A stretch of DNA of 64,000 nt from Flavobacteriales bacterium (lineage in GTDB: Bacteria > Bacteroidota > Bacteroidia > Flavobacteriales_C > GCA-002722245). The translations under genes were made by a program, and so were the position numbers. Shown one piece after another: positions 1-41,007 of this stretch. The DNA lies in contig JAYPYW010000004.1 in NCBI GenBank assembly GCA_038154685.1, forward strand, positions 32,473-96,472, read 5' to 3'. Numbering within the stretch: the stretch's first letter is position 1; each line of letters opens with the position of its first letter. Below the pieces are notes generated by a model. That model did not search any database. It was not told the origin of the DNA and saw only the letters and a program-made list of their open reading frames with translations.

Positions 1-561
1 GTTAGCTGTTCTACTTGGTCCTAAACCTCTTGTAGCGATATCTAGTTGAAGTCCTGCAAAATCACTTTCCCAAATATTTAAACCTGGAACTTTAGCAAAT
101 AATTGACGCGCATTGTTGGTTGATTTATTTGCTGCGAAATCGTCCAGCACAATCACCTCATTTTTTTTGGATTCGTATATCACCGTTCCCTCAACCGATT
201 TTAATCTTGTAATTCCATTGGTTGATTTTTCTTTTACGATTTCTACAACTTTTAGGTCGTTTGATTCCTGTAAAAGTGAGAAGTTTATAACTGTATCTTT
301 TGTAATGTTTAAATTGAGGATTTCATGTTGCATACCAATTTTAACAACCTCAATACTATTTTTTCCTTTGTTGGTTTGGAAAGAGTAAGTTCCATCCTTC
401 TTAACATTTATTACTTGTTGAGAGGGTTGGATCATAATTAAGGCATCCTTAACGGGTTTTTGATCAAGTTTCGCCTTCACCGAACCACTAATGTTTACAT
501 TTTGAGCAAATCCCAAAACAGTAATAAAAACGAGTAATATGACAAGTTTAAATCTTTGCAT
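1..561 (-). CDS. TonB-dependent receptor, N-terminal part (signal peptide, carboxypeptidase-regulatory-like domain and plug); gene runs off the window start
   Basis: My translation of the minus strand from the ATG at 561 gives MQRFKLVILLVFITVLGFAQNVNISGSVKAKLDQKPV...ARQLFAKVPGLNIWESDFAGLQLDIATRGLGPSRTAN, a typical TBDR N-terminus. The ORF track omits it because it is incomplete. It overlaps the stop of the HTTM gene by 14 nt. Confidence 0.6.
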   Translation of the reverse strand, partial: MQRFKLVILLVFITVLGFAQNVNISGSVKAKLDQKPVKDALIMIQPSQQVINVKKDGTYSFQTNKGKNSIEVVKIGMQHEILNLNITKDTVINFSLLQESNDLKVVEIVKEKSTNGITRLKSVEGTVIYESKKNEVIVLDDFAANKSTNNARQLFAKVPGLNIWESDFAGLQLDIATRGLGPSRTAN

Positions 562-1927
562 TGCTGGCTTTAAATGGCAAAATCCAATCTTTTGATCGCC
601 AAGTGTCCTTTTTTTCTGTCAGATCCACACTAGGATCAATTAATAATTGTGCAGGTTTACCGTTAAGTGTTACCCATGCTTCTACTCTTACCTTAGGATC
701 TTTCATCCCTTTTTCCTTAAAATGCTCTTCCAAATAATGAGCAAATTGTAAGATTAAATCTGGCTGCATAGCCATTTGCTTTTCTTGATGCATGTTTAGG
801 AATTGATGGTTTATAACTGAACCCTCTCTTCCGTTTTCGCCATCCTTAACAAAGAAAGTTGCTGTTCCAGCTTTTTCCATTAACATCACTCTCCACCCAA
901 ATCGATATCCTTGCTCAGTCCAAAATAAATTCCCTGAATAAAGCATGAATCTCCATGGAAACAAGATTTGAAAAACGAAGAACAAAAATACGGCTGTTTT
1001 AAAGAACTTAGGTGTTTTGTAACTGTATAAATCAGTATTTTTTGAGCTCAACATGCCAAAACCGATCAACTTTCTTAACCCTACGATAATTTTTTGATGA
1101 AACTCGTCTGAAAAGAAGATTAAAACTCCAAACATCATTACGATTGGAAATACACCAATTTGAAATAAAATTCCTGTGATAGAATGGAAGAATACAACGC
1201 ACAGATAGGAAATTAGGCGCGTTTTTTTGTACATCAATCCAAAAATTATAAATGTATCAAATAACATCCCCGCCCAACTAAATAAGTAGGGAATGATATC
1301 ATATTCGAACATAAAACCGATGATAGGAAGTTCACTTTGGGCAGGAAGCCAAATTCTTAAAGGTAAGGCTTCTATTAGCCAAGCGTAATTCATTTTCGCA
1401 AGTCCTGCGTAAATATATACTATGGCAATTTGCCATTTGAAAACACCAATGCACCAACTTGGAATTTTATCGATTGATTGAGTGAGACCTAATTTTACAT
1501 CAAGGGAAAAATGTTTATTTGCGGGAACAAAAATTAGCATAAGTGCTACCAAACTTACAAAGTAATAGTGGTTGAGATAATAAGTGATGTCTATTAGCTC
1601 TATGTAAGTAAAACAAAGAAAGAAAACAATGGTTGATATCCTGTACACGAATCCAAGGGAAATGAAAATACTTGCGATCATCATTATTATGAATATCATA
1701 TACATTCCGGTTTCCGAAATCGGTTTTATCCAATCAAAACCATAATAACTGAAATGCAAAATCGGATCGGTCAATTGATTTTCCAACCAACCCATGTATA
1801 GGTACCTCGATGAACTAAAAAGCATTAATAGTCCAAAGGCTATTCTAAAAACAACTAATGGAGCAATCGAAGTAGATTGCTCCATTTTGTTAAAAACAGA
1901 TTGTATGTATTCTCCTATCGTTTTCAA
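548..1927 (-). CDS. HTTM-domain (vitamin K-dependent gamma-carboxylase-like) polytopic membrane protein
   Basis: 459-aa ORF with a hydrophobic multi-TM N-terminal half (FRIAFGLLMLFSSSRYLYMGWLEN...) and a soluble C-terminal half. It sits in the conserved Bacteroidetes neighbourhood TonB receptor/HTTM/imelysin/DUF4856. Confidence 0.55.
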   Translation of the reverse strand: MKTIGEYIQSVFNKMEQSTSIAPLVVFRIAFGLLMLFSSSRYLYMGWLENQLTDPILHFSYYGFDWIKPISETGMYMIFIIMMIASIFISLGFVYRISTIVFFLCFTYIELIDITYYLNHYYFVSLVALMLIFVPANKHFSLDVKLGLTQSIDKIPSWCIGVFKWQIAIVYIYAGLAKMNYAWLIEALPLRIWLPAQSELPIIGFMFEYDIIPYLFSWAGMLFDTFIIFGLMYKKTRLISYLCVVFFHSITGILFQIGVFPIVMMFGVLIFFSDEFHQKIIVGLRKLIGFGMLSSKNTDLYSYKTPKFFKTAVFLFFVFQILFPWRFMLYSGNLFWTEQGYRFGWRVMLMEKAGTATFFVKDGENGREGSVINHQFLNMHQEKQMAMQPDLILQFAHYLEEHFKEKGMKDPKVRVEAWVTLNGKPAQLLIDPSVDLTEKKDTWRSKDWILPFKASNAKI

Positions 1928-36166: not shown

Positions 36167-36976
36167 CTATCTAACGATGAAATTCTCCTTTGTTTGATCT
36201 TTCGAAAAGAAAACGAGTCCAACCCAGAAAATATCAACTGTAACCGTAACTGATGGATGCGACTTGATATAATCCCAAGCTTCCTCCATTCCTTTGCTCC
36301 AGTGGATGTCATCGAAGATGAAAATGGAGTTGTCATGTGCCTTTTCTAGGCATTTGTCAAAATATTCGATTGTAGGTTCCTTTTGGTGATTTCCATCGAA
36401 GAAAACATAATCTAATTGATCATAGGAATCCAAAACTTCGGGTAAAGTTTTAGCAAAATCGCCCACCTTAATTTTTATCTGATCGGCTTTGAAATTGGAG
36501 AAAACTTTTTGAGCTACTTTAGCCGTTTGAGGACAGCCCTCCATGGTTGTGAAGTTGGCCTTTTTGTTTGGTGCAATTTGATAACAAGCAGAAATACCCA
36601 GTGAAGTTCCTAGTTCAAGCATATTTTTTGGCTCAAACTTATTAATCAATCGGAACATCATTTGTCCTAAACCAGGGGCTTTGGCTGAATTTGAGGCAAC
36701 ATCAGAAATCTTTCTTTCATTGGATTTGTTGATGTTACTTCCAGCACCAAAGTCGGTAATTTTAATAGTGGAATTATTCTTCTTTAAAGCTGCTCTTAAA
36801 CCTTCAATTTCTTTAAAGGCATAATACTGTTGATCAGATTTTATAACCTCCTCAATCAGCTCGTTTACAAACGCAGAATTCGTTTTCGTTTTAGCCGAAA
36901 GCCAGTACTTGAAAAATCTTGCTGCAAATTGGAAACGTTTAAGCATGCTGCAAAGATAGATGATTTTAAATTTCAC
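36167..36976 (-). CDS. class I SAM-dependent methyltransferase
   Basis: Motif I (ITDFGAGSNIN), motif II region (LELGTSLG) and an acidic-loop motif (VFFDGNH). The 5' end overlaps repeat copy A, so the true start is probably internal. Confidence 0.65.
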   Translation of the reverse strand: MKFKIIYLCSMLKRFQFAARFFKYWLSAKTKTNSAFVNELIEEVIKSDQQYYAFKEIEGLRAALKKNNSTIKITDFGAGSNINKSNERKISDVASNSAKAPGLGQMMFRLINKFEPKNMLELGTSLGISACYQIAPNKKANFTTMEGCPQTAKVAQKVFSNFKADQIKIKVGDFAKTLPEVLDSYDQLDYVFFDGNHQKEPTIEYFDKCLEKAHDNSIFIFDDIHWSKGMEEAWDYIKSHPSVTVTVDIFWVGLVFFSKDQTKENFIVR

Positions 36977-37043
36977 GCAGAGTCTAAGGAATATAAAGAG
37001 TTTTGATGTTACAAACTCTTTTAACTCTTAATACTCTGTGTGC

Positions 37044-37068
37044 AAAAAAAGAGCCGCAAACGCGGCTC
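37044..37068 (-). terminator. rho-independent terminator downstream of the gldM-like gene
   Basis: Minus strand: gagccgcg-ttt-gcggctc followed by TTTTTTT. Confidence 0.65.
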
Positions 37069-37110
37069 CTCCTCCTAACATCATATCCTAAGATATGTCC
37101 TGACAATGTT

Positions 37111-38718
37111 TTATTTAATTGTTATTTTCTGACGGATTTTGTGAGTTATTTTGTCAGCGCCTTTGGCTTTAATTTCAATCTCTACACTATTTCCTTTTGA
37201 TAACCTTTTAATTTGATTGTATGTTGTTTGATCAATCTTTCCATTTCTAAGATTAATTGGAGAGCCCAATTCATTTCCTTTTTTTACCATTATTGTTGCA
37301 GATACAATTTTGGGTACAGAGGAAATTGGGAACGCTTTATCGTATATTGGTTTTGTACCAACTTGTAATAAAACTGTGGCTAGTGCATTTGCCGATGCTC
37401 GATCATGTTTTACTCCAGGAGTTTTTATAAATGGAATTGGTAATGAAGTACTCTTCCATGTTTGTTGAGATATAGTTTTCGTTTCCCCGTTAATTTTCGC
37501 GGCAACAGTTATGTTAAATCTTCCTCCTCTTGAGGGCACAAACACGTACTTTCCATTGCCTTTAGAAGATACTCTACAACCATTCCCTGCAGTAACAACC
37601 AAATCTTCCGATCTCATTCCAGGGGCTGAAACACTTATTTCATTATCCAATCCCATGTACATAATATTTAACTGATCTGAGGAAATTACAGCGCTTGGAG
37701 CAGCAACCGTAAAGTTATTAACGAAAGGATAGGTAAGGAATTCGCCCTTTCGTTTGGGGTTTGGATGGGGTACTTTCATGATTCCACCCCAAGCGTGATT
37801 TCCAGTTTCTTCAGCTTTTATTTTGAATTGTCCAATACCACCAGATACAGGTAAGTCTTTTGTTTCTCCAATAAACTTGATTTGTCCTGTTTTTCGGTAA
37901 TGAGCGGTGTCATAATCTCCTACTTTTACAATAGGTTCTGCAGTTGTATCCGAAGCAGCCAAAAAGATATTTGCCGAATATTCATCTCCTTGTAAAACAT
38001 AACCTGATTGAGCTATTGAAGTAGCAAGGATTTTATTCACCTTTAGTACATCCGCACTAATCTCTTCGTACATGTAGTTTAATGCTTGTGATTCTGCATT
38101 TCTTACATAACTCTGTAAGTTGGTTAAGTTTGCCGTTACAGCTGCTAGTGGTAAGTATTCACTAATTCCATTTTCCCAAGGACTTTTCACTCCTTCGTAA
38201 TCAACATGTGGAGGTGTCTCCAAAAGTTTATTAATCCCGTTAATCACAGAGGTATCTTGAGGATCAATTAAAGCCACTAAGTCAGCCTTATATTTTCCGA
38301 TATTGTTTTTTAAGGTTTCTCCGTGACCTTTAACAACAAGGTATTCTGCTCCAATATCCTGATTATCTTTTCCAATTGGTACACCATTTTCCTCATCGAT
38401 ACCTCCACCAATTTCGATGATATCGCTTTTGTATTTCTCTATCTCTTGAAATATTCGATTGGCAGCTTCAGCAATGATTTTAGCATTTTCGTTTGTTTTA
38501 ATTGCTGTTTTTGATCCAGTGGCTGCAGCCGTTGAGATTTTATCGTAAATAGTTTGGTTGGTATTGTTAAAGTTACTTGTAGTAACATCAATTCCGTCTT
38601 CCAAAAAGATGAATGCGTTTAATAAATCTTTCGATGCATTCATTGCCAACATAGCCAACAGGACAAGGTACATCATCCCTATCATTTGCTGGCGTGGGGT
38701 TTGTTTTCCTCCTGCCAT
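37111..38718 (-). CDS. gldM: GldM/PorM-like protein (T9SS/gliding motor-associated family); orphan copy lacking adjacent gldK/L/N
   Basis: N-terminus MAGGKQTPRQQMIGMMYLVLLAMLAMNASK closely matches the conserved GldM N-terminal TM segment (MAGGK..PRQKMINLMYLV…) as I recall it. 535 aa with a mostly periplasmic, beta-rich remainder. No gldL upstream and no gldN downstream. Confidence 0.55.
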   Translation of the reverse strand: MAGGKQTPRQQMIGMMYLVLLAMLAMNASKDLLNAFIFLEDGIDVTTSNFNNTNQTIYDKISTAAATGSKTAIKTNENAKIIAEAANRIFQEIEKYKSDIIEIGGGIDEENGVPIGKDNQDIGAEYLVVKGHGETLKNNIGKYKADLVALIDPQDTSVINGINKLLETPPHVDYEGVKSPWENGISEYLPLAAVTANLTNLQSYVRNAESQALNYMYEEISADVLKVNKILATSIAQSGYVLQGDEYSANIFLAASDTTAEPIVKVGDYDTAHYRKTGQIKFIGETKDLPVSGGIGQFKIKAEETGNHAWGGIMKVPHPNPKRKGEFLTYPFVNNFTVAAPSAVISSDQLNIMYMGLDNEISVSAPGMRSEDLVVTAGNGCRVSSKGNGKYVFVPSRGGRFNITVAAKINGETKTISQQTWKSTSLPIPFIKTPGVKHDRASANALATVLLQVGTKPIYDKAFPISSVPKIVSATIMVKKGNELGSPINLRNGKIDQTTYNQIKRLSKGNSVEIEIKAKGADKITHKIRQKITIK

Positions 38719-38807
38719 AATAACTGATTTTTAAATGATTAAAATTCAGCTTCAACATGAGCTCTATTGTTGACGCTTCAGTTATTAAATACAAGAAAAA
38801 ATAATGG

Positions 38808-39461
38808 TTACAGTAAAATTTTTGATTTTGCCGAGTTTTTGAGCAATATGATGGATTCTTTTACGAGTTCTTCGAACTCCGTAAGTCTGTTTTTATTGAG
38901 GTTTCTTGCTTCGCAAAAATGTTCAATTTGAATGGCATATTTTTTTAATAGATCACATCCAATCATGGCGAATGATGACTTCATTGTGTGCGCAATTTTT
39001 CGAATTTTATTCAAATCAGATTGCTGGTAGGCAAAATGCATTAAGCTTAAATGTTCTACACATTGTTGCCCATACATTTCTATTATTTCTTTAAAAGCTT
39101 GGTTGTTTGGTCCAACTAAAGCTTCAATAAGTTTGAAGTTAATAGTTAACTCCTTTGGAGGGGGGGAGTTGTAATCCTTTTTTAGTTCCTTTAACTCCTG
39201 CTGAGCTTTGTGGATTTGTTTTTTAGATAATCTAATTAAGGATGCTGCGGCTCTTAGATTGTAATGCCGTACACTAGCGTAGCGATCAAAATCATTTGCT
39301 AGCTGGTATTTGTTGATTTGTTTAAAAAGTATTCTGCCAATTTTTGAAAGCTTTTCTATTTTTTCAGAATCATTTCTCTTAATTGACTTCTCAAAATCGC
39401 AAATAATTTTTGGAGCATACTCCAAGAACTCAATTAAATCAATAATTCTCTGTTCTTTCAT
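38808..39461 (-). CDS. Hpt (histidine phosphotransfer) domain protein
   Basis: Soluble 217-aa helical protein with IAHTMKSSFAMIGCDLL matching the HxxKGxxxxxG Hpt phospho-His motif. Confidence 0.5.
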   Translation of the reverse strand: MKEQRIIDLIEFLEYAPKIICDFEKSIKRNDSEKIEKLSKIGRILFKQINKYQLANDFDRYASVRHYNLRAAASLIRLSKKQIHKAQQELKELKKDYNSPPPKELTINFKLIEALVGPNNQAFKEIIEMYGQQCVEHLSLMHFAYQQSDLNKIRKIAHTMKSSFAMIGCDLLKKYAIQIEHFCEARNLNKNRLTEFEELVKESIILLKNSAKSKILL

Positions 39462-39478
39462 ATACTTTGATTCTTCTT

Positions 39479-39838
39479 TTAAGCAGCTACAAGAGCTGCG
39501 ATTTTTGAGTCAAGATTTCCATAATTAATAGGTTTAGTTAAAACCAAATTAGTATCTAATTGATCGTCTAGGTCTTTCAGGTACTTTTTTTTCAAGGAAG
39601 TTATGAATAGCATCTTGGTTTGGGAATTATTTAGATTATTGAGCGTTTTGTATAGTTCATTTCCAGTAACATACGGCATTAATAAGTCCGATATAACTAG
39701 ATCAGGTTGAAGTTTGAGAATTTTTGGGAGTGCGTCCATAGCGCTCGTGGTTTCGATAATCTCATGACCTTGCTTTTGTAAATAGAAGGAAATTTTTTTT
39801 ACGACAAGTATATTATCGTCTATAACTAAGATTTTCAT
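39479..39838 (-). CDS. single-domain CheY-like response regulator receiver
   Basis: MKILVIDDN (acidic pocket), phosphoacceptor VISDLLMP, ITS and TKP motifs. 119 aa with no output domain. Confidence 0.8.
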   Translation of the reverse strand: MKILVIDDNILVVKKISFYLQKQGHEIIETTSAMDALPKILKLQPDLVISDLLMPYVTGNELYKTLNNLNNSQTKMLFITSLKKKYLKDLDDQLDTNLVLTKPINYGNLDSKIAALVAA

Positions 39839-39951: not shown

Positions 39952-41007
39952 TTAGTCAAAACTTACCTGCGCAGTTTCTGATAAAACTCTTGATTGACAG
40001 GCTAATACAACTCCGCTTTCAACTTCATCATCAGAAAGTGCGATATTACTGTCCATTTCAATTTCTCCTTTTCCTTTCGTGCATCTACAAACTCCGCAAA
40101 CACCTCCTTGGCAGGAAAAAGGTAAATCAAAGCCAGCAGCAATTCCGGCTTCTAAAATAGTCTGACTACTTTTTACATTGAAAGAAATCTCTTCTCCATC
40201 AAGAATTGCAGATACTTTACTTCCATCCGATTTTGGGGCTTCTGTTTGGTTTCCTTTTTCAGCAATAGCTGAAGAAGTAAATAATTCAAAGTGCAAATTC
40301 GCAAGATTAAAGTCGAACTTCTTACTCAATAATTCCTTCACATTATTTGTTAAAGCTTCCGGCCCACAAATAAAAATGTCATCCGTGTTTTCGGGTAAAG
40401 CATATTTATTAAAAAGCTTCTTAAGTTTTCTTCCTTCTAATCTTCCAGAGTGGAATCTATCTTCACCTTTGACCTGACTGAAAAATAGATGAAGTTCAAA
40501 TCTTGAGCTGTACTCTTTTGCTAGGTCTTCAAGTTCGGATTTAAAAATAGTAAGCTCAGGAGATTTATTTCCATAGAACAGCATTACCTTACTTTCTTTT
40601 TCTTCTAAAAGAATTGTTTTTAGGATGGAGTAAATTGGAGTAATTCCACTCCCTGCAGCAATTAAAGTGTAATATTTTTTTCGCTCTGGTTTCGGCTCTA
40701 TGTAAAAATTACCGGCTGGTTTTCCAACTTCAATTTGGTCACCAATTTTTAATTCTTGGTTAGCATAAGTTGAGAAAATACCATTAGGAATTTGTTTAAC
40801 AACAACTGTATGTTTACCAGATGCAGGAGCTGAACATAAAGAATATGATCGTCTGACTTCTTTTCCATTGATGTCCTTTTTAAGGGTTAAAAACTGACCA
40901 GCTTTAAAGGCAAAGTCTGAAGTCAGATTTGAAGGGATTTCAAAATCAATAGAAACTGATTCCGAAGTTTCCTTGTTAATGCGCTTAACGGTTAAATTAT
41001 TGAACAT
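39952..41007 (-). CDS. ferredoxin–NADP reductase-type oxidoreductase with C-terminal 2Fe-2S ferredoxin domain (PaaE-like)
   Basis: FAD-binding RSYSLCS, NAD-binding GSGITP and a C-terminal CQGGVCGVCRC…LACQ plant-type ferredoxin cluster. Confidence 0.8.
   Translation of the reverse strand: MFNNLTVKRINKETSESVSIDFEIPSNLTSDFAFKAGQFLTLKKDINGKEVRRSYSLCSAPASGKHTVVVKQIPNGIFSTYANQELKIGDQIEVGKPAGNFYIEPKPERKKYYTLIAAGSGITPIYSILKTILLEEKESKVMLFYGNKSPELTIFKSELEDLAKEYSSRFELHLFFSQVKGEDRFHSGRLEGRKLKKLFNKYALPENTDDIFICGPEALTNNVKELLSKKFDFNLANLHFELFTSSAIAEKGNQTEAPKSDGSKVSAILDGEEISFNVKSSQTILEAGIAAGFDLPFSCQGGVCGVCRCTKGKGEIEMDSNIALSDDEVESGVVLACQSRVLSETAQVSFD

Follow-up and report, generated by a model that had tools for sequence, protein, structure and literature searches.

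Canonical gldM genes are encoded within gldK-gldL-gldM-gldN, so what is a gldM-like gene doing on its own, directly behind two genes of a phosphorelay? The question is raised by a 64,000-nt stretch of a Flavobacteriales genome (contig JAYPYW010000004.1, positions 32,473 to 96,472; termed here the window), where genes for a single-domain response-regulator receiver (REC), a stand-alone histidine phosphotransfer (Hpt) protein and a 535-aa protein resembling GldM/PorM of the gliding and type IX secretion system (T9SS) motor follow one another on the minus strand. A preliminary description made from the sequence had treated the three as a single operon with a phosphorelay wired directly to a GldM-like periplasmic component, possibly as a chemotaxis-like input, and had mentioned as an alternative that a divergent paralogue of GldM might serve another envelope machine. 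It is this alternative that fits the evidence best. On balance we think it probable that the stand-alone GldM paralogue is an alternative rotor of the motor, and that REC and Hpt are the residue of a kinase cassette that belongs to one marine clade.

The family assignment of the 535-aa protein, called the orphan GldM hereafter, was correctly made in the preliminary description. The protein scores 274.4 bits over residues 1-530 against the NCBIfam equivalog TIGR03517 (PorM/GldM; cutoff 180) and matches Pfam PF12081, PF21601 and PF21602 (GldM_1st, GldM_2nd and GldM_3rd). The domains that had been predicted for the three proteins were therefore recovered as Response_reg, Hpt and the first three GldM domains, but the model of the fourth GldM domain, PF12080, found no match in the 535-aa protein. 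The fold was taken from an AlphaFold2 model, which has a predicted local distance difference test (pLDDT) score of 81.5 overall and above 90 in the fourth periplasmic domain (D4). Its best Foldseek matches are PorM (7cmg) and GldM (6ey4), and it superposes with a TM-score of 0.70 on D3-D4 of PorM (6ey5/6ey6) and of 0.85 on SthGldLM (7sau). In sequence and in fold the orphan GldM is a GldM/PorM protein, including the four periplasmic domains; the feature of GldM/PorM that it does not share is being encoded within gldK-gldL-gldM-gldN.

A search of 5.8 billion proteins returned a continuous series of full-length homologues of 531-551 aa, which are 39-97% identical to the window GldM and score 390-1151 bits. 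Beyond this subfamily there is an abrupt fall to canonical GldM, with at most 38% identity and 277 bits, all of them with a PF12080 match, a match that is absent in most members of the orphan subfamily and present in some. By neighbour joining, the orphan copies group in a single clade, to the exclusion of the canonical copies found in the same genomes. Orphan GldM proteins constitute a distinct, monophyletic and stand-alone subfamily.

Its distribution was established by a scan of species-representative genomes and metagenomes, seeded by an alignment of 30 subfamily members, in which loci were classed by tblastn and called orphan at an identity of at least 39%. In total 57 orphan-type gldM loci were found (37 after dereplication), and their hosts are uncultured marine and freshwater Flavobacteriales known as metagenome-assembled genomes (MAGs), plus one MAG labelled Saprospiraceae. 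None of the 37 dereplicated loci has gldK, gldL or gldN within 6-10 kb, whereas all three are present in 48 of the 49 canonical-type loci with adequate flanks. The absence of these genes near gldM had already been noted for the window, and tblastn for gldK, gldL and gldN across its 64 kb indeed found none. The preliminary description had also called for a check on whether the gene is a second copy, and for relatives of the window's organism the answer is clear: a canonical porP-gldK-L-M-N locus with a separate GldM, 31-38% identical to the window's orphan protein, was recovered in 11 of 14 orphan-bearing genomes. Two contigs even carry both copies, PBEC01000018 with about 100 kb between them (loci L012 and L036) and Ga0257114_1000001 (L103 and L136), and the genes flanking L036 score above cutoff as PorP/SprF, GldK, GldL, GldM and GldN together with a second GldN. 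The orphan gldM is a true paralogue, a second copy beside a normal gldKLMN, and from these relatives we infer the same for the window's own organism.

Two further observations concern the gene content of these relatives. The canonical operon of marine relatives holds two tandem GldN paralogues in the manner of gldN/gldO (L036:11742-13532). The MAG labelled Saprospiraceae (JBLIAZ01) carries two orphan-type GldM genes on separate short contigs (L014 and L015), 51% and 49% identical to the window's, and the genome scan recovered no canonical GldM from it.

Where the two GldM copies of one genome differ is clearly defined. Residues 1-36, the cytoplasmic tail and membrane helix, are 72-100% identical between the orphan and the canonical protein, compared with 13-39% in D1-D4. 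Gene conversion was considered as the source of the near-identical N-termini and rejected: only 16-21 of the 36 third codon positions are identical, about 50%, so that the N-terminal identity reflects purifying selection and not a recent conversion event. Arg9 in the membrane helix is invariant in the 30 aligned subfamily members; in Flavobacterium johnsoniae GldM this residue has been proposed to form a salt bridge with Glu49 of GldL, a feature shared by every GldLM/PorLM structure solved (bioRxiv 10.1101/2022.01.28.478170). Along the periplasmic part the gradient of conservation is inverted in the orphans. Their mean pairwise identity is 56% in D1, 61% in D2, 52% in D3 and 32% in D4, with D1-D2 the most and the distal D4 the least conserved, whereas the canonical proteins show 49%, 48%, 66% and 59% for the same domains, D4 being among their most conserved. 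The gene as a whole is under strong purifying selection, with a ratio of nonsynonymous to synonymous substitution rates (dN/dS) of 0.011-0.11, the lower value being that against L089, a locus of the same species as the window that is covered over ±10 kb (GldM 99% and REC 100% identical). Looked up as an exact sequence, the window GldM had no match; L089 is its nearest. Comparisons of sequence and model show an orphan GldM whose stator-coupling helix is intact and whose periplasmic part has changed.

The orphan gldM also has a conserved promoter-like motif of its own. When the 135 nt upstream of the start codon were aligned for 11 marine loci, the blocks TGTAAC-N13-TGTAT proved invariant in all of them, with or without REC/Hpt, and an exact match lies in the window inside the gap between Hpt and gldM. 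Across the 2.41 Mb of sequence retrieved, a slightly relaxed pattern matches 91 times: 48 matches are situated no more than 160 nt upstream of orphan gldM, 10 precede a canonical gldK and the remaining 33 fall elsewhere, against a background rate of 0.0011 per 160-nt window. The motif is present before nearly every orphan gldM, and a related TGTAAC-N15-GCGTTTA precedes the canonical gldK genes of marine genomes. The standard Bacteroidetes sigma-A promoter consists of TTTG at -33 and TAnnTTTG at -7, and as the invariant bases misfit this consensus a sigma-A reading was rejected. With AAC at the end of its -35 element and a -10 element that is short and rich in G/C-G/T, the motif has a form that we take to resemble promoters of extracytoplasmic function (ECF) sigma factors (-35 AAC / -10 CGT-like), and we prefer this putative, still unproven reading. 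The por genes of Porphyromonas gingivalis are driven by the ECF factor SigP (PMC4800418), and orphan gldM may share a regulon with the core T9SS.

This bears directly on the operon. The layout given in the preliminary description was accurate: the three genes are co-directional with gaps of 17 nt (REC-Hpt) and 89 nt (Hpt-gldM), and gldM is followed by a terminator, GGAGCCGC-GUUU-GCGGCUC and then U7, which folds at -27.8 kcal/mol (z = -4.4 against shuffles). A consensus promoter/terminator scan of the window was uninformative and missed this terminator. The claim of a single REC-Hpt-gldM operon fares less well, because a gldM with its own conserved motif in the 89-nt gap, kept whether or not REC and Hpt are there, need not be co-transcribed with them.

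What, then, are the two upstream genes? REC scores 59 bits against PF00072 (cutoff 30) and has the acidic pocket, phospho-acceptor Asp, Thr and Lys of a receiver, with D7, D8, D51, T80 and K102-P103 invariant in seven orthologues of 67-100% identity. Against the same-species L089 its dN/dS is 0.00 (dS 0.08), and the strongly conserved REC is probably still phosphorylatable. Upstream of it, two ATCGAT palindromes 21 nt apart are invariant in six of six aligned REC-bearing loci and may represent a candidate operator, bound by a repressor or an activator. The Hpt protein matches PF01627 with 45 bits (cutoff 24.6) over residues 125-193. It contains the motif quoted in the preliminary description, IAHTMKSSFAMIG, and the characteristic HxxK of Hpt domains is present as H158-T-M-K161, invariant among homologues, His158 included. 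Its C-terminal half forms the four-helix bundle of Hpt domains and its N-terminal half is helical and without a Pfam match. The AlphaFold2 model, built from an alignment of five rows, has a pLDDT of 81, and its C-terminal half matches HptB (7c1i; target-normalised TM-score 0.81) as well as the Hpt domain of ArcB. Homologues are rare, amounting to four clusters only among the 5.8 billion proteins, and all clusters whose neighbourhood could be read, or which share a contig with orphan gldM, lie in REC-Hpt loci.

A census of the 32 dereplicated orphan loci with enough upstream sequence shows how loosely these genes accompany gldM. Neither REC nor Hpt is found in 18 of them, 9 have REC only, 4 have both and 1 has REC with a full kinase, and the loci without these genes contain no degraded remnants of them (all E-values > 0.1). 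With both genes in only 4 of 32 loci, the idea of a phosphorelay wired directly to GldM is not supported.

The key to the origin of Hpt lies in L172 and L173, which hold the most distant REC orthologues (58-61% identity) and share with the window the synteny of mfd, an acyltransferase and a PaaE-like ferredoxin reductase. The reductase is followed there by a divergent receiver on the opposite strand, REC, a kinase, a TGTAACC-N12-TGTGT motif and orphan gldM. The kinase is a soluble hybrid protein of 944 aa with the order PAS-PAS-HisKA-HATPase_c-REC-linker-Hpt, and residues 7-203 of the window Hpt align to residues 732-930 of the L173 kinase at 31% identity (E = 1e-22), including the N-terminal half that lacks a Pfam match. 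The kinase search called for earlier thus came out differently in the two places: the 10 largest open reading frames (ORFs) of the window are housekeeping genes and include no histidine kinase, but a hybrid kinase occupies the same position in L172/L173. When a tree was built from the PaaE-like gene, the loci with the kinase grouped in the other major marine branch, so that the REC-kinase cassette was probably ancestral to the marine clade; later it was probably truncated to Hpt in the window lineage, reduced to REC alone, or lost altogether. The selection regime agrees with erosion, since against L089 the dN/dS of Hpt is 0.22, compared with 0.00 for REC, 0.011 for GldM and 0.053 for the reductase, and Hpt evolves 4-20 times faster than the neighbouring genes. 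From the sequence, the Hpt gene is most likely a truncation relic of the hybrid kinase under relaxed selection. The change would have run from kinase to Hpt; we favour truncation over fusion, since a relay can stand by itself only in the form that contains the kinase. Homologous end to end to the C-terminal 210 residues of a kinase, Hpt looks more like an eroding remnant than like a purpose-built relay part. Nor are the two genes a chemotaxis CheY/CheA module, which would have CheA (P1-P5), CheW and a chemoreceptor nearby and an Hpt of the CheA-P1 type: Hpt is homologous to a PAS hybrid kinase and not to CheA, and the subset of window ORFs that was inspected contains no che gene.

A separate phosphorelay cluster was observed in freshwater relatives about 1.7 kb downstream of canonical gldN (L033:14266-19659; also L024, L026, L029, L030, L039, L056 and L057). 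It encodes a NIT-HAMP histidine kinase of 814 aa, a REC-PAS hybrid kinase of 665 aa, a stand-alone Hpt of 121 aa and a receiver of 187 aa, and is separated from gldN by a 166-aa ORF and, in opposite orientation, a gene for an AI-2E transporter. A kinase/Hpt/REC relay here lies near a GldM-type gene for a second time, and independently, which could be due to chance.

We propose the following explanation for the locus. The orphan GldM, a paralogue of the rotor ('axle') protein of the proton-driven GldL5-GldM2 motor, keeps the cytoplasmic tail and the membrane helix with Arg9 nearly unaltered as well as the four-domain periplasmic shaft, its periplasmic domains having diverged, and would insert into the same GldL stator as canonical GldM; as no second gldL accompanies orphan gldM, the same stator is most likely the one used. 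The variable D4 tip of this alternative motor would engage a target different from the conserved GldK/GldN ring, or alternatively the orphan GldM would compete for stators and modulate the availability of GldL. What bears indirectly on a GldL5-GldM2 assembly by the orphan protein, and on contact of its D4 with GldK/GldN, is a conserved helix and a diverged D4. Transcription would start from the ECF-sigma-like motif of the gene itself, a similar motif standing before gldK in sister genomes. The receiver and the soluble PAS hybrid kinase would have stood here already in the ancestor of a single marine clade, after which the kinase would have been cut to its last ~215 codons (linker and Hpt) in the window lineage, while sister lineages would have lost the kinase or the whole cassette. 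A REC under strong selection but without a kinase in cis must receive its phosphate from elsewhere. Direct contact between REC and GldM is implausible, since GldM exposes only about 10 residues to the cytoplasm, and any input to the motor would go through GldL; action of REC via the cytoplasmic domain of GldL is conceivable by analogy with PorX, the support from these loci being the adjacency of REC to orphan gldM within one syntenic clade. A more ambitious version would place two rotors on one GldL stator in some uncultured Flavobacteriales, the canonical one driving the GldKN secretion ring and the orphan one, with its fast-evolving distal tip, passing proton-motive force to another periplasmic or outer-membrane output, under a common ECF regulon and with the marine-clade relay of PAS kinase, Hpt and CheY-like receiver modulating the choice, now or formerly, from the cytoplasmic face of the motor; we regard this as doubtful.

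Among the competing explanations, the one closest to the preliminary description keeps REC, Hpt and the GldM paralogue in one operon, where a kinase-to-Hpt-to-REC relay feeds the GldM motor, for example through phospho-REC acting on GldL and switching stators between rotors. The tight co-directional arrangement with its only terminator after gldM speaks for it, as do the complete catalytic residues and very strong purifying selection of REC and the fact that REC, Hpt or the full kinase, wherever found, stand immediately upstream of orphan gldM and nowhere else. There is also a molecular precedent, in that P. gingivalis PorX binds PorL (PMC5005315) and the phosphomimetic CheY-like domain of PorX (PorX-REC) binds the cytoplasmic domain of GldL (PMC10951265), and the freshwater cluster near gldN can be added on the same side. 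However, all REC-bearing loci share one syntenic neighbourhood, so that their adjacency is not independent evidence, and most orphan loci do without both genes. Repeatedly the kinase was cut short or disappeared, selection on Hpt is relaxed, the 10 largest ORFs of the window offer no kinase to start the relay, gldM has its own conserved promoter-like motif, and REC is not PorX-like (35 bits against the PorX model NF052313, cutoff 300). Taken together this makes the explanation an unlikely one.

It is also quite unlikely, in our view, that the orphan GldM is a non-functional duplicate nearing loss, or a dominant-negative decoy that titrates GldL stators without mechanical output. Such a fate would suit the poorly conserved D4, the scarcity of dedicated partner genes (the methyltransferase described below excepted) and two MAG copies that are frameshifted, one of them with Arg9 replaced by Ser, but a length held at 531-551 aa across 39-97% identity, a D4 that is confidently predicted as folded, the conserved promoter motif and the low dN/dS are not what a decaying gene would show. 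Simple decay is excluded on these grounds, which leave the regulatory decoy half of the idea unaffected. That the orphan might instead be the organism's only GldM, its gldKLMN operon broken up and scattered, we consider highly improbable. The protein does exceed the PorM/GldM equivalog cutoff, and the window's own genome is seen for these 64 kb only; against this stand the intact porP-gldK-L-M-N loci with a separate GldM in most orphan-bearing genomes, the two contigs with both copies and the monophyly of an orphan clade distinct from the canonical copies.

That said, several points weigh against the alternative rotor and the eroded cassette that we prefer. The canonical gldKLMN of the window's species is deduced from relatives whose orphan GldM is 43-71% identical to that of the window. 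The membrane helix is highly conserved across all GldM, such that near-identity of the two copies is expected from constraint alone and is no proof of a shared stator, and a second gldL may be encoded elsewhere in orphan-bearing genomes. The orphan gldM is split by a frameshift in L022:10001-11595 and L023:10001-11592, with an additional Arg9-to-Ser replacement in L022, and unless these frameshifts are assembly errors the paralogue is dispensable in some lineages. Truncation of the kinase and fusion of an Hpt to a kinase each need one event, and functional logic is all that favours the former. That the motif is of ECF type is judged by its resemblance to known promoters, and no sigma factor was identified. 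Finally, REC is perfectly conserved and always lies directly upstream of gldM where present, which leaves room for a functional tie to the paralogue.

Compared with canonical GldM/PorM (F. johnsoniae Fjoh_1855 and P. gingivalis PorM; PDB 6ys8, 6ey4, 7cmg and 7sau), the orphan protein is alike in length, in the N-terminal tail and the single membrane helix with Arg9, and in the helical D1 followed by three immunoglobulin (Ig)-like domains; it passes TIGR03517 and its model superposes domain by domain. It is unlike them in never being encoded with gldK, gldL or gldN, in its own promoter-like motif and methyltransferase neighbour, in its diverged periplasmic domains, in being extra to a canonical copy wherever this could be checked and in the weak conservation of D4. 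The nearest precedent for a duplicated core T9SS component is GldO, a paralogue that F. johnsoniae has beside GldN itself (PMC9127263). However, gldO adjoins gldN in the operon and is partly redundant, whereas the paralogue of GldM is dispersed, and its periplasmic portion has diverged strongly. When the literature was searched for GldM paralogues, second copies or GldM-like proteins, the only pertinent finds were GldO and the gldKLMN that Cardinium carries on a plasmid, and we found no prior description of a dispersed, stand-alone second GldM in the searchable literature; the subfamily has probably been overlooked because annotation pipelines simply label such proteins 'GldM'.

For the signalling genes, the PorX/PorY-SigP system of P. 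gingivalis and F. johnsoniae offers a loose precedent, as it ties a receiver to the T9SS motor and an ECF factor to the por genes. The window REC differs from PorX as a bare 119-aa receiver without the three-helix bundle or PglZ phosphodiesterase domain, its partner in the sister lineage is a soluble PAS hybrid kinase with Hpt and not a membrane kinase of the PorY type, and no sigma factor gene is found in the window locus. The cassette of L172/L173 has exactly the architecture of the ArcB, BarA and TorS-type kinase and receiver phosphorelays, and the window Hpt resembles HptB of Pseudomonas aeruginosa in its HxxK motif and four-helix-bundle fold. Unlike those relays, the window has no kinase, ATPase or internal receiver domains, and its relay is therefore without a cis-encoded phosphate source.

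How one GldLM motor powers both secretion and the movement of gliding adhesins is an open question of the T9SS field, and a natural second rotor would be a direct handle on it. A rotor that keeps the stator-binding helix with a changed shaft and tip could show which part of GldM specifies the output. Inference of T9SS or gliding capacity from gene counts, on the other hand, can be misled by orphan GldM. The REC/Hpt pair would clearly illustrate how a hybrid kinase is pared down to a free-standing Hpt gene. We expect moderate interest for specialists in T9SS and gliding, and less for the locus as a signalling system.

Table 1. Genes and sequence signals of the orphan gldM locus (positions in the window)
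Feature	Position	Strand	Description
Methyltransf_24 gene	36167..36976	minus	class I S-adenosylmethionine (SAM)-dependent methyltransferase; PF13578 and PF01596 matches; downstream of gldM
Intrinsic terminator after gldM	37041..37075	minus	14-bp stem, then U7 tract
Orphan gldM	37111..38718	minus	GldM/PorM paralogue, 535 aa: N-terminal tail, one membrane helix with Arg9, helical D1, Ig-like D2-D4
Promoter-like motif TGTAACC-N12-TGTAT (putatively ECF-sigma-like)	38789..38812	minus	Hpt-gldM gap; overlaps Hpt stop codon
Hpt gene	38808..39461	minus	stand-alone Hpt protein, 217 aa
REC gene	39479..39838	minus	single-domain response-regulator receiver, 119 aa
Two ATCGAT palindromes	39927-39922 and 39906-39901	minus	upstream of REC; invariant in aligned loci
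PaaE-like ferredoxin reductase gene	39952-41007	minus	FAD_binding_6, NAD_binding_1, Fer2

The genes that border this region (Table 1) are themselves conserved. In 22 of 26 dereplicated loci a homologue of the methyltransferase follows orphan gldM within 1.5 kb, also where the other neighbours are unrelated, which makes it the most consistently conserved neighbour of orphan gldM, although in the window the terminator separates the two; an NCBIfam scan of the methyltransferase gave no match above cutoff. On the other side, the PaaE-like reductase, which reaches 349 bits against the PaaE model (below the cutoff of 421), is the gene that invariably borders the REC/kinase/gldM region upstream in the marine clade. 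Elsewhere in the window, the gldA-like, gldB and gldC genes mentioned in the preliminary description are what they were said to be, with GldA, GldB and GldC all exceeding their NCBIfam cutoffs. An Rfam scan of the window reported one tRNA and nothing else. Near its beginning (548-1927, minus strand) the window also encodes a 459-aa protein with HTTM and vitamin-K-dependent gamma-carboxylase lumenal domains, a member of an uncommon bacterial family.

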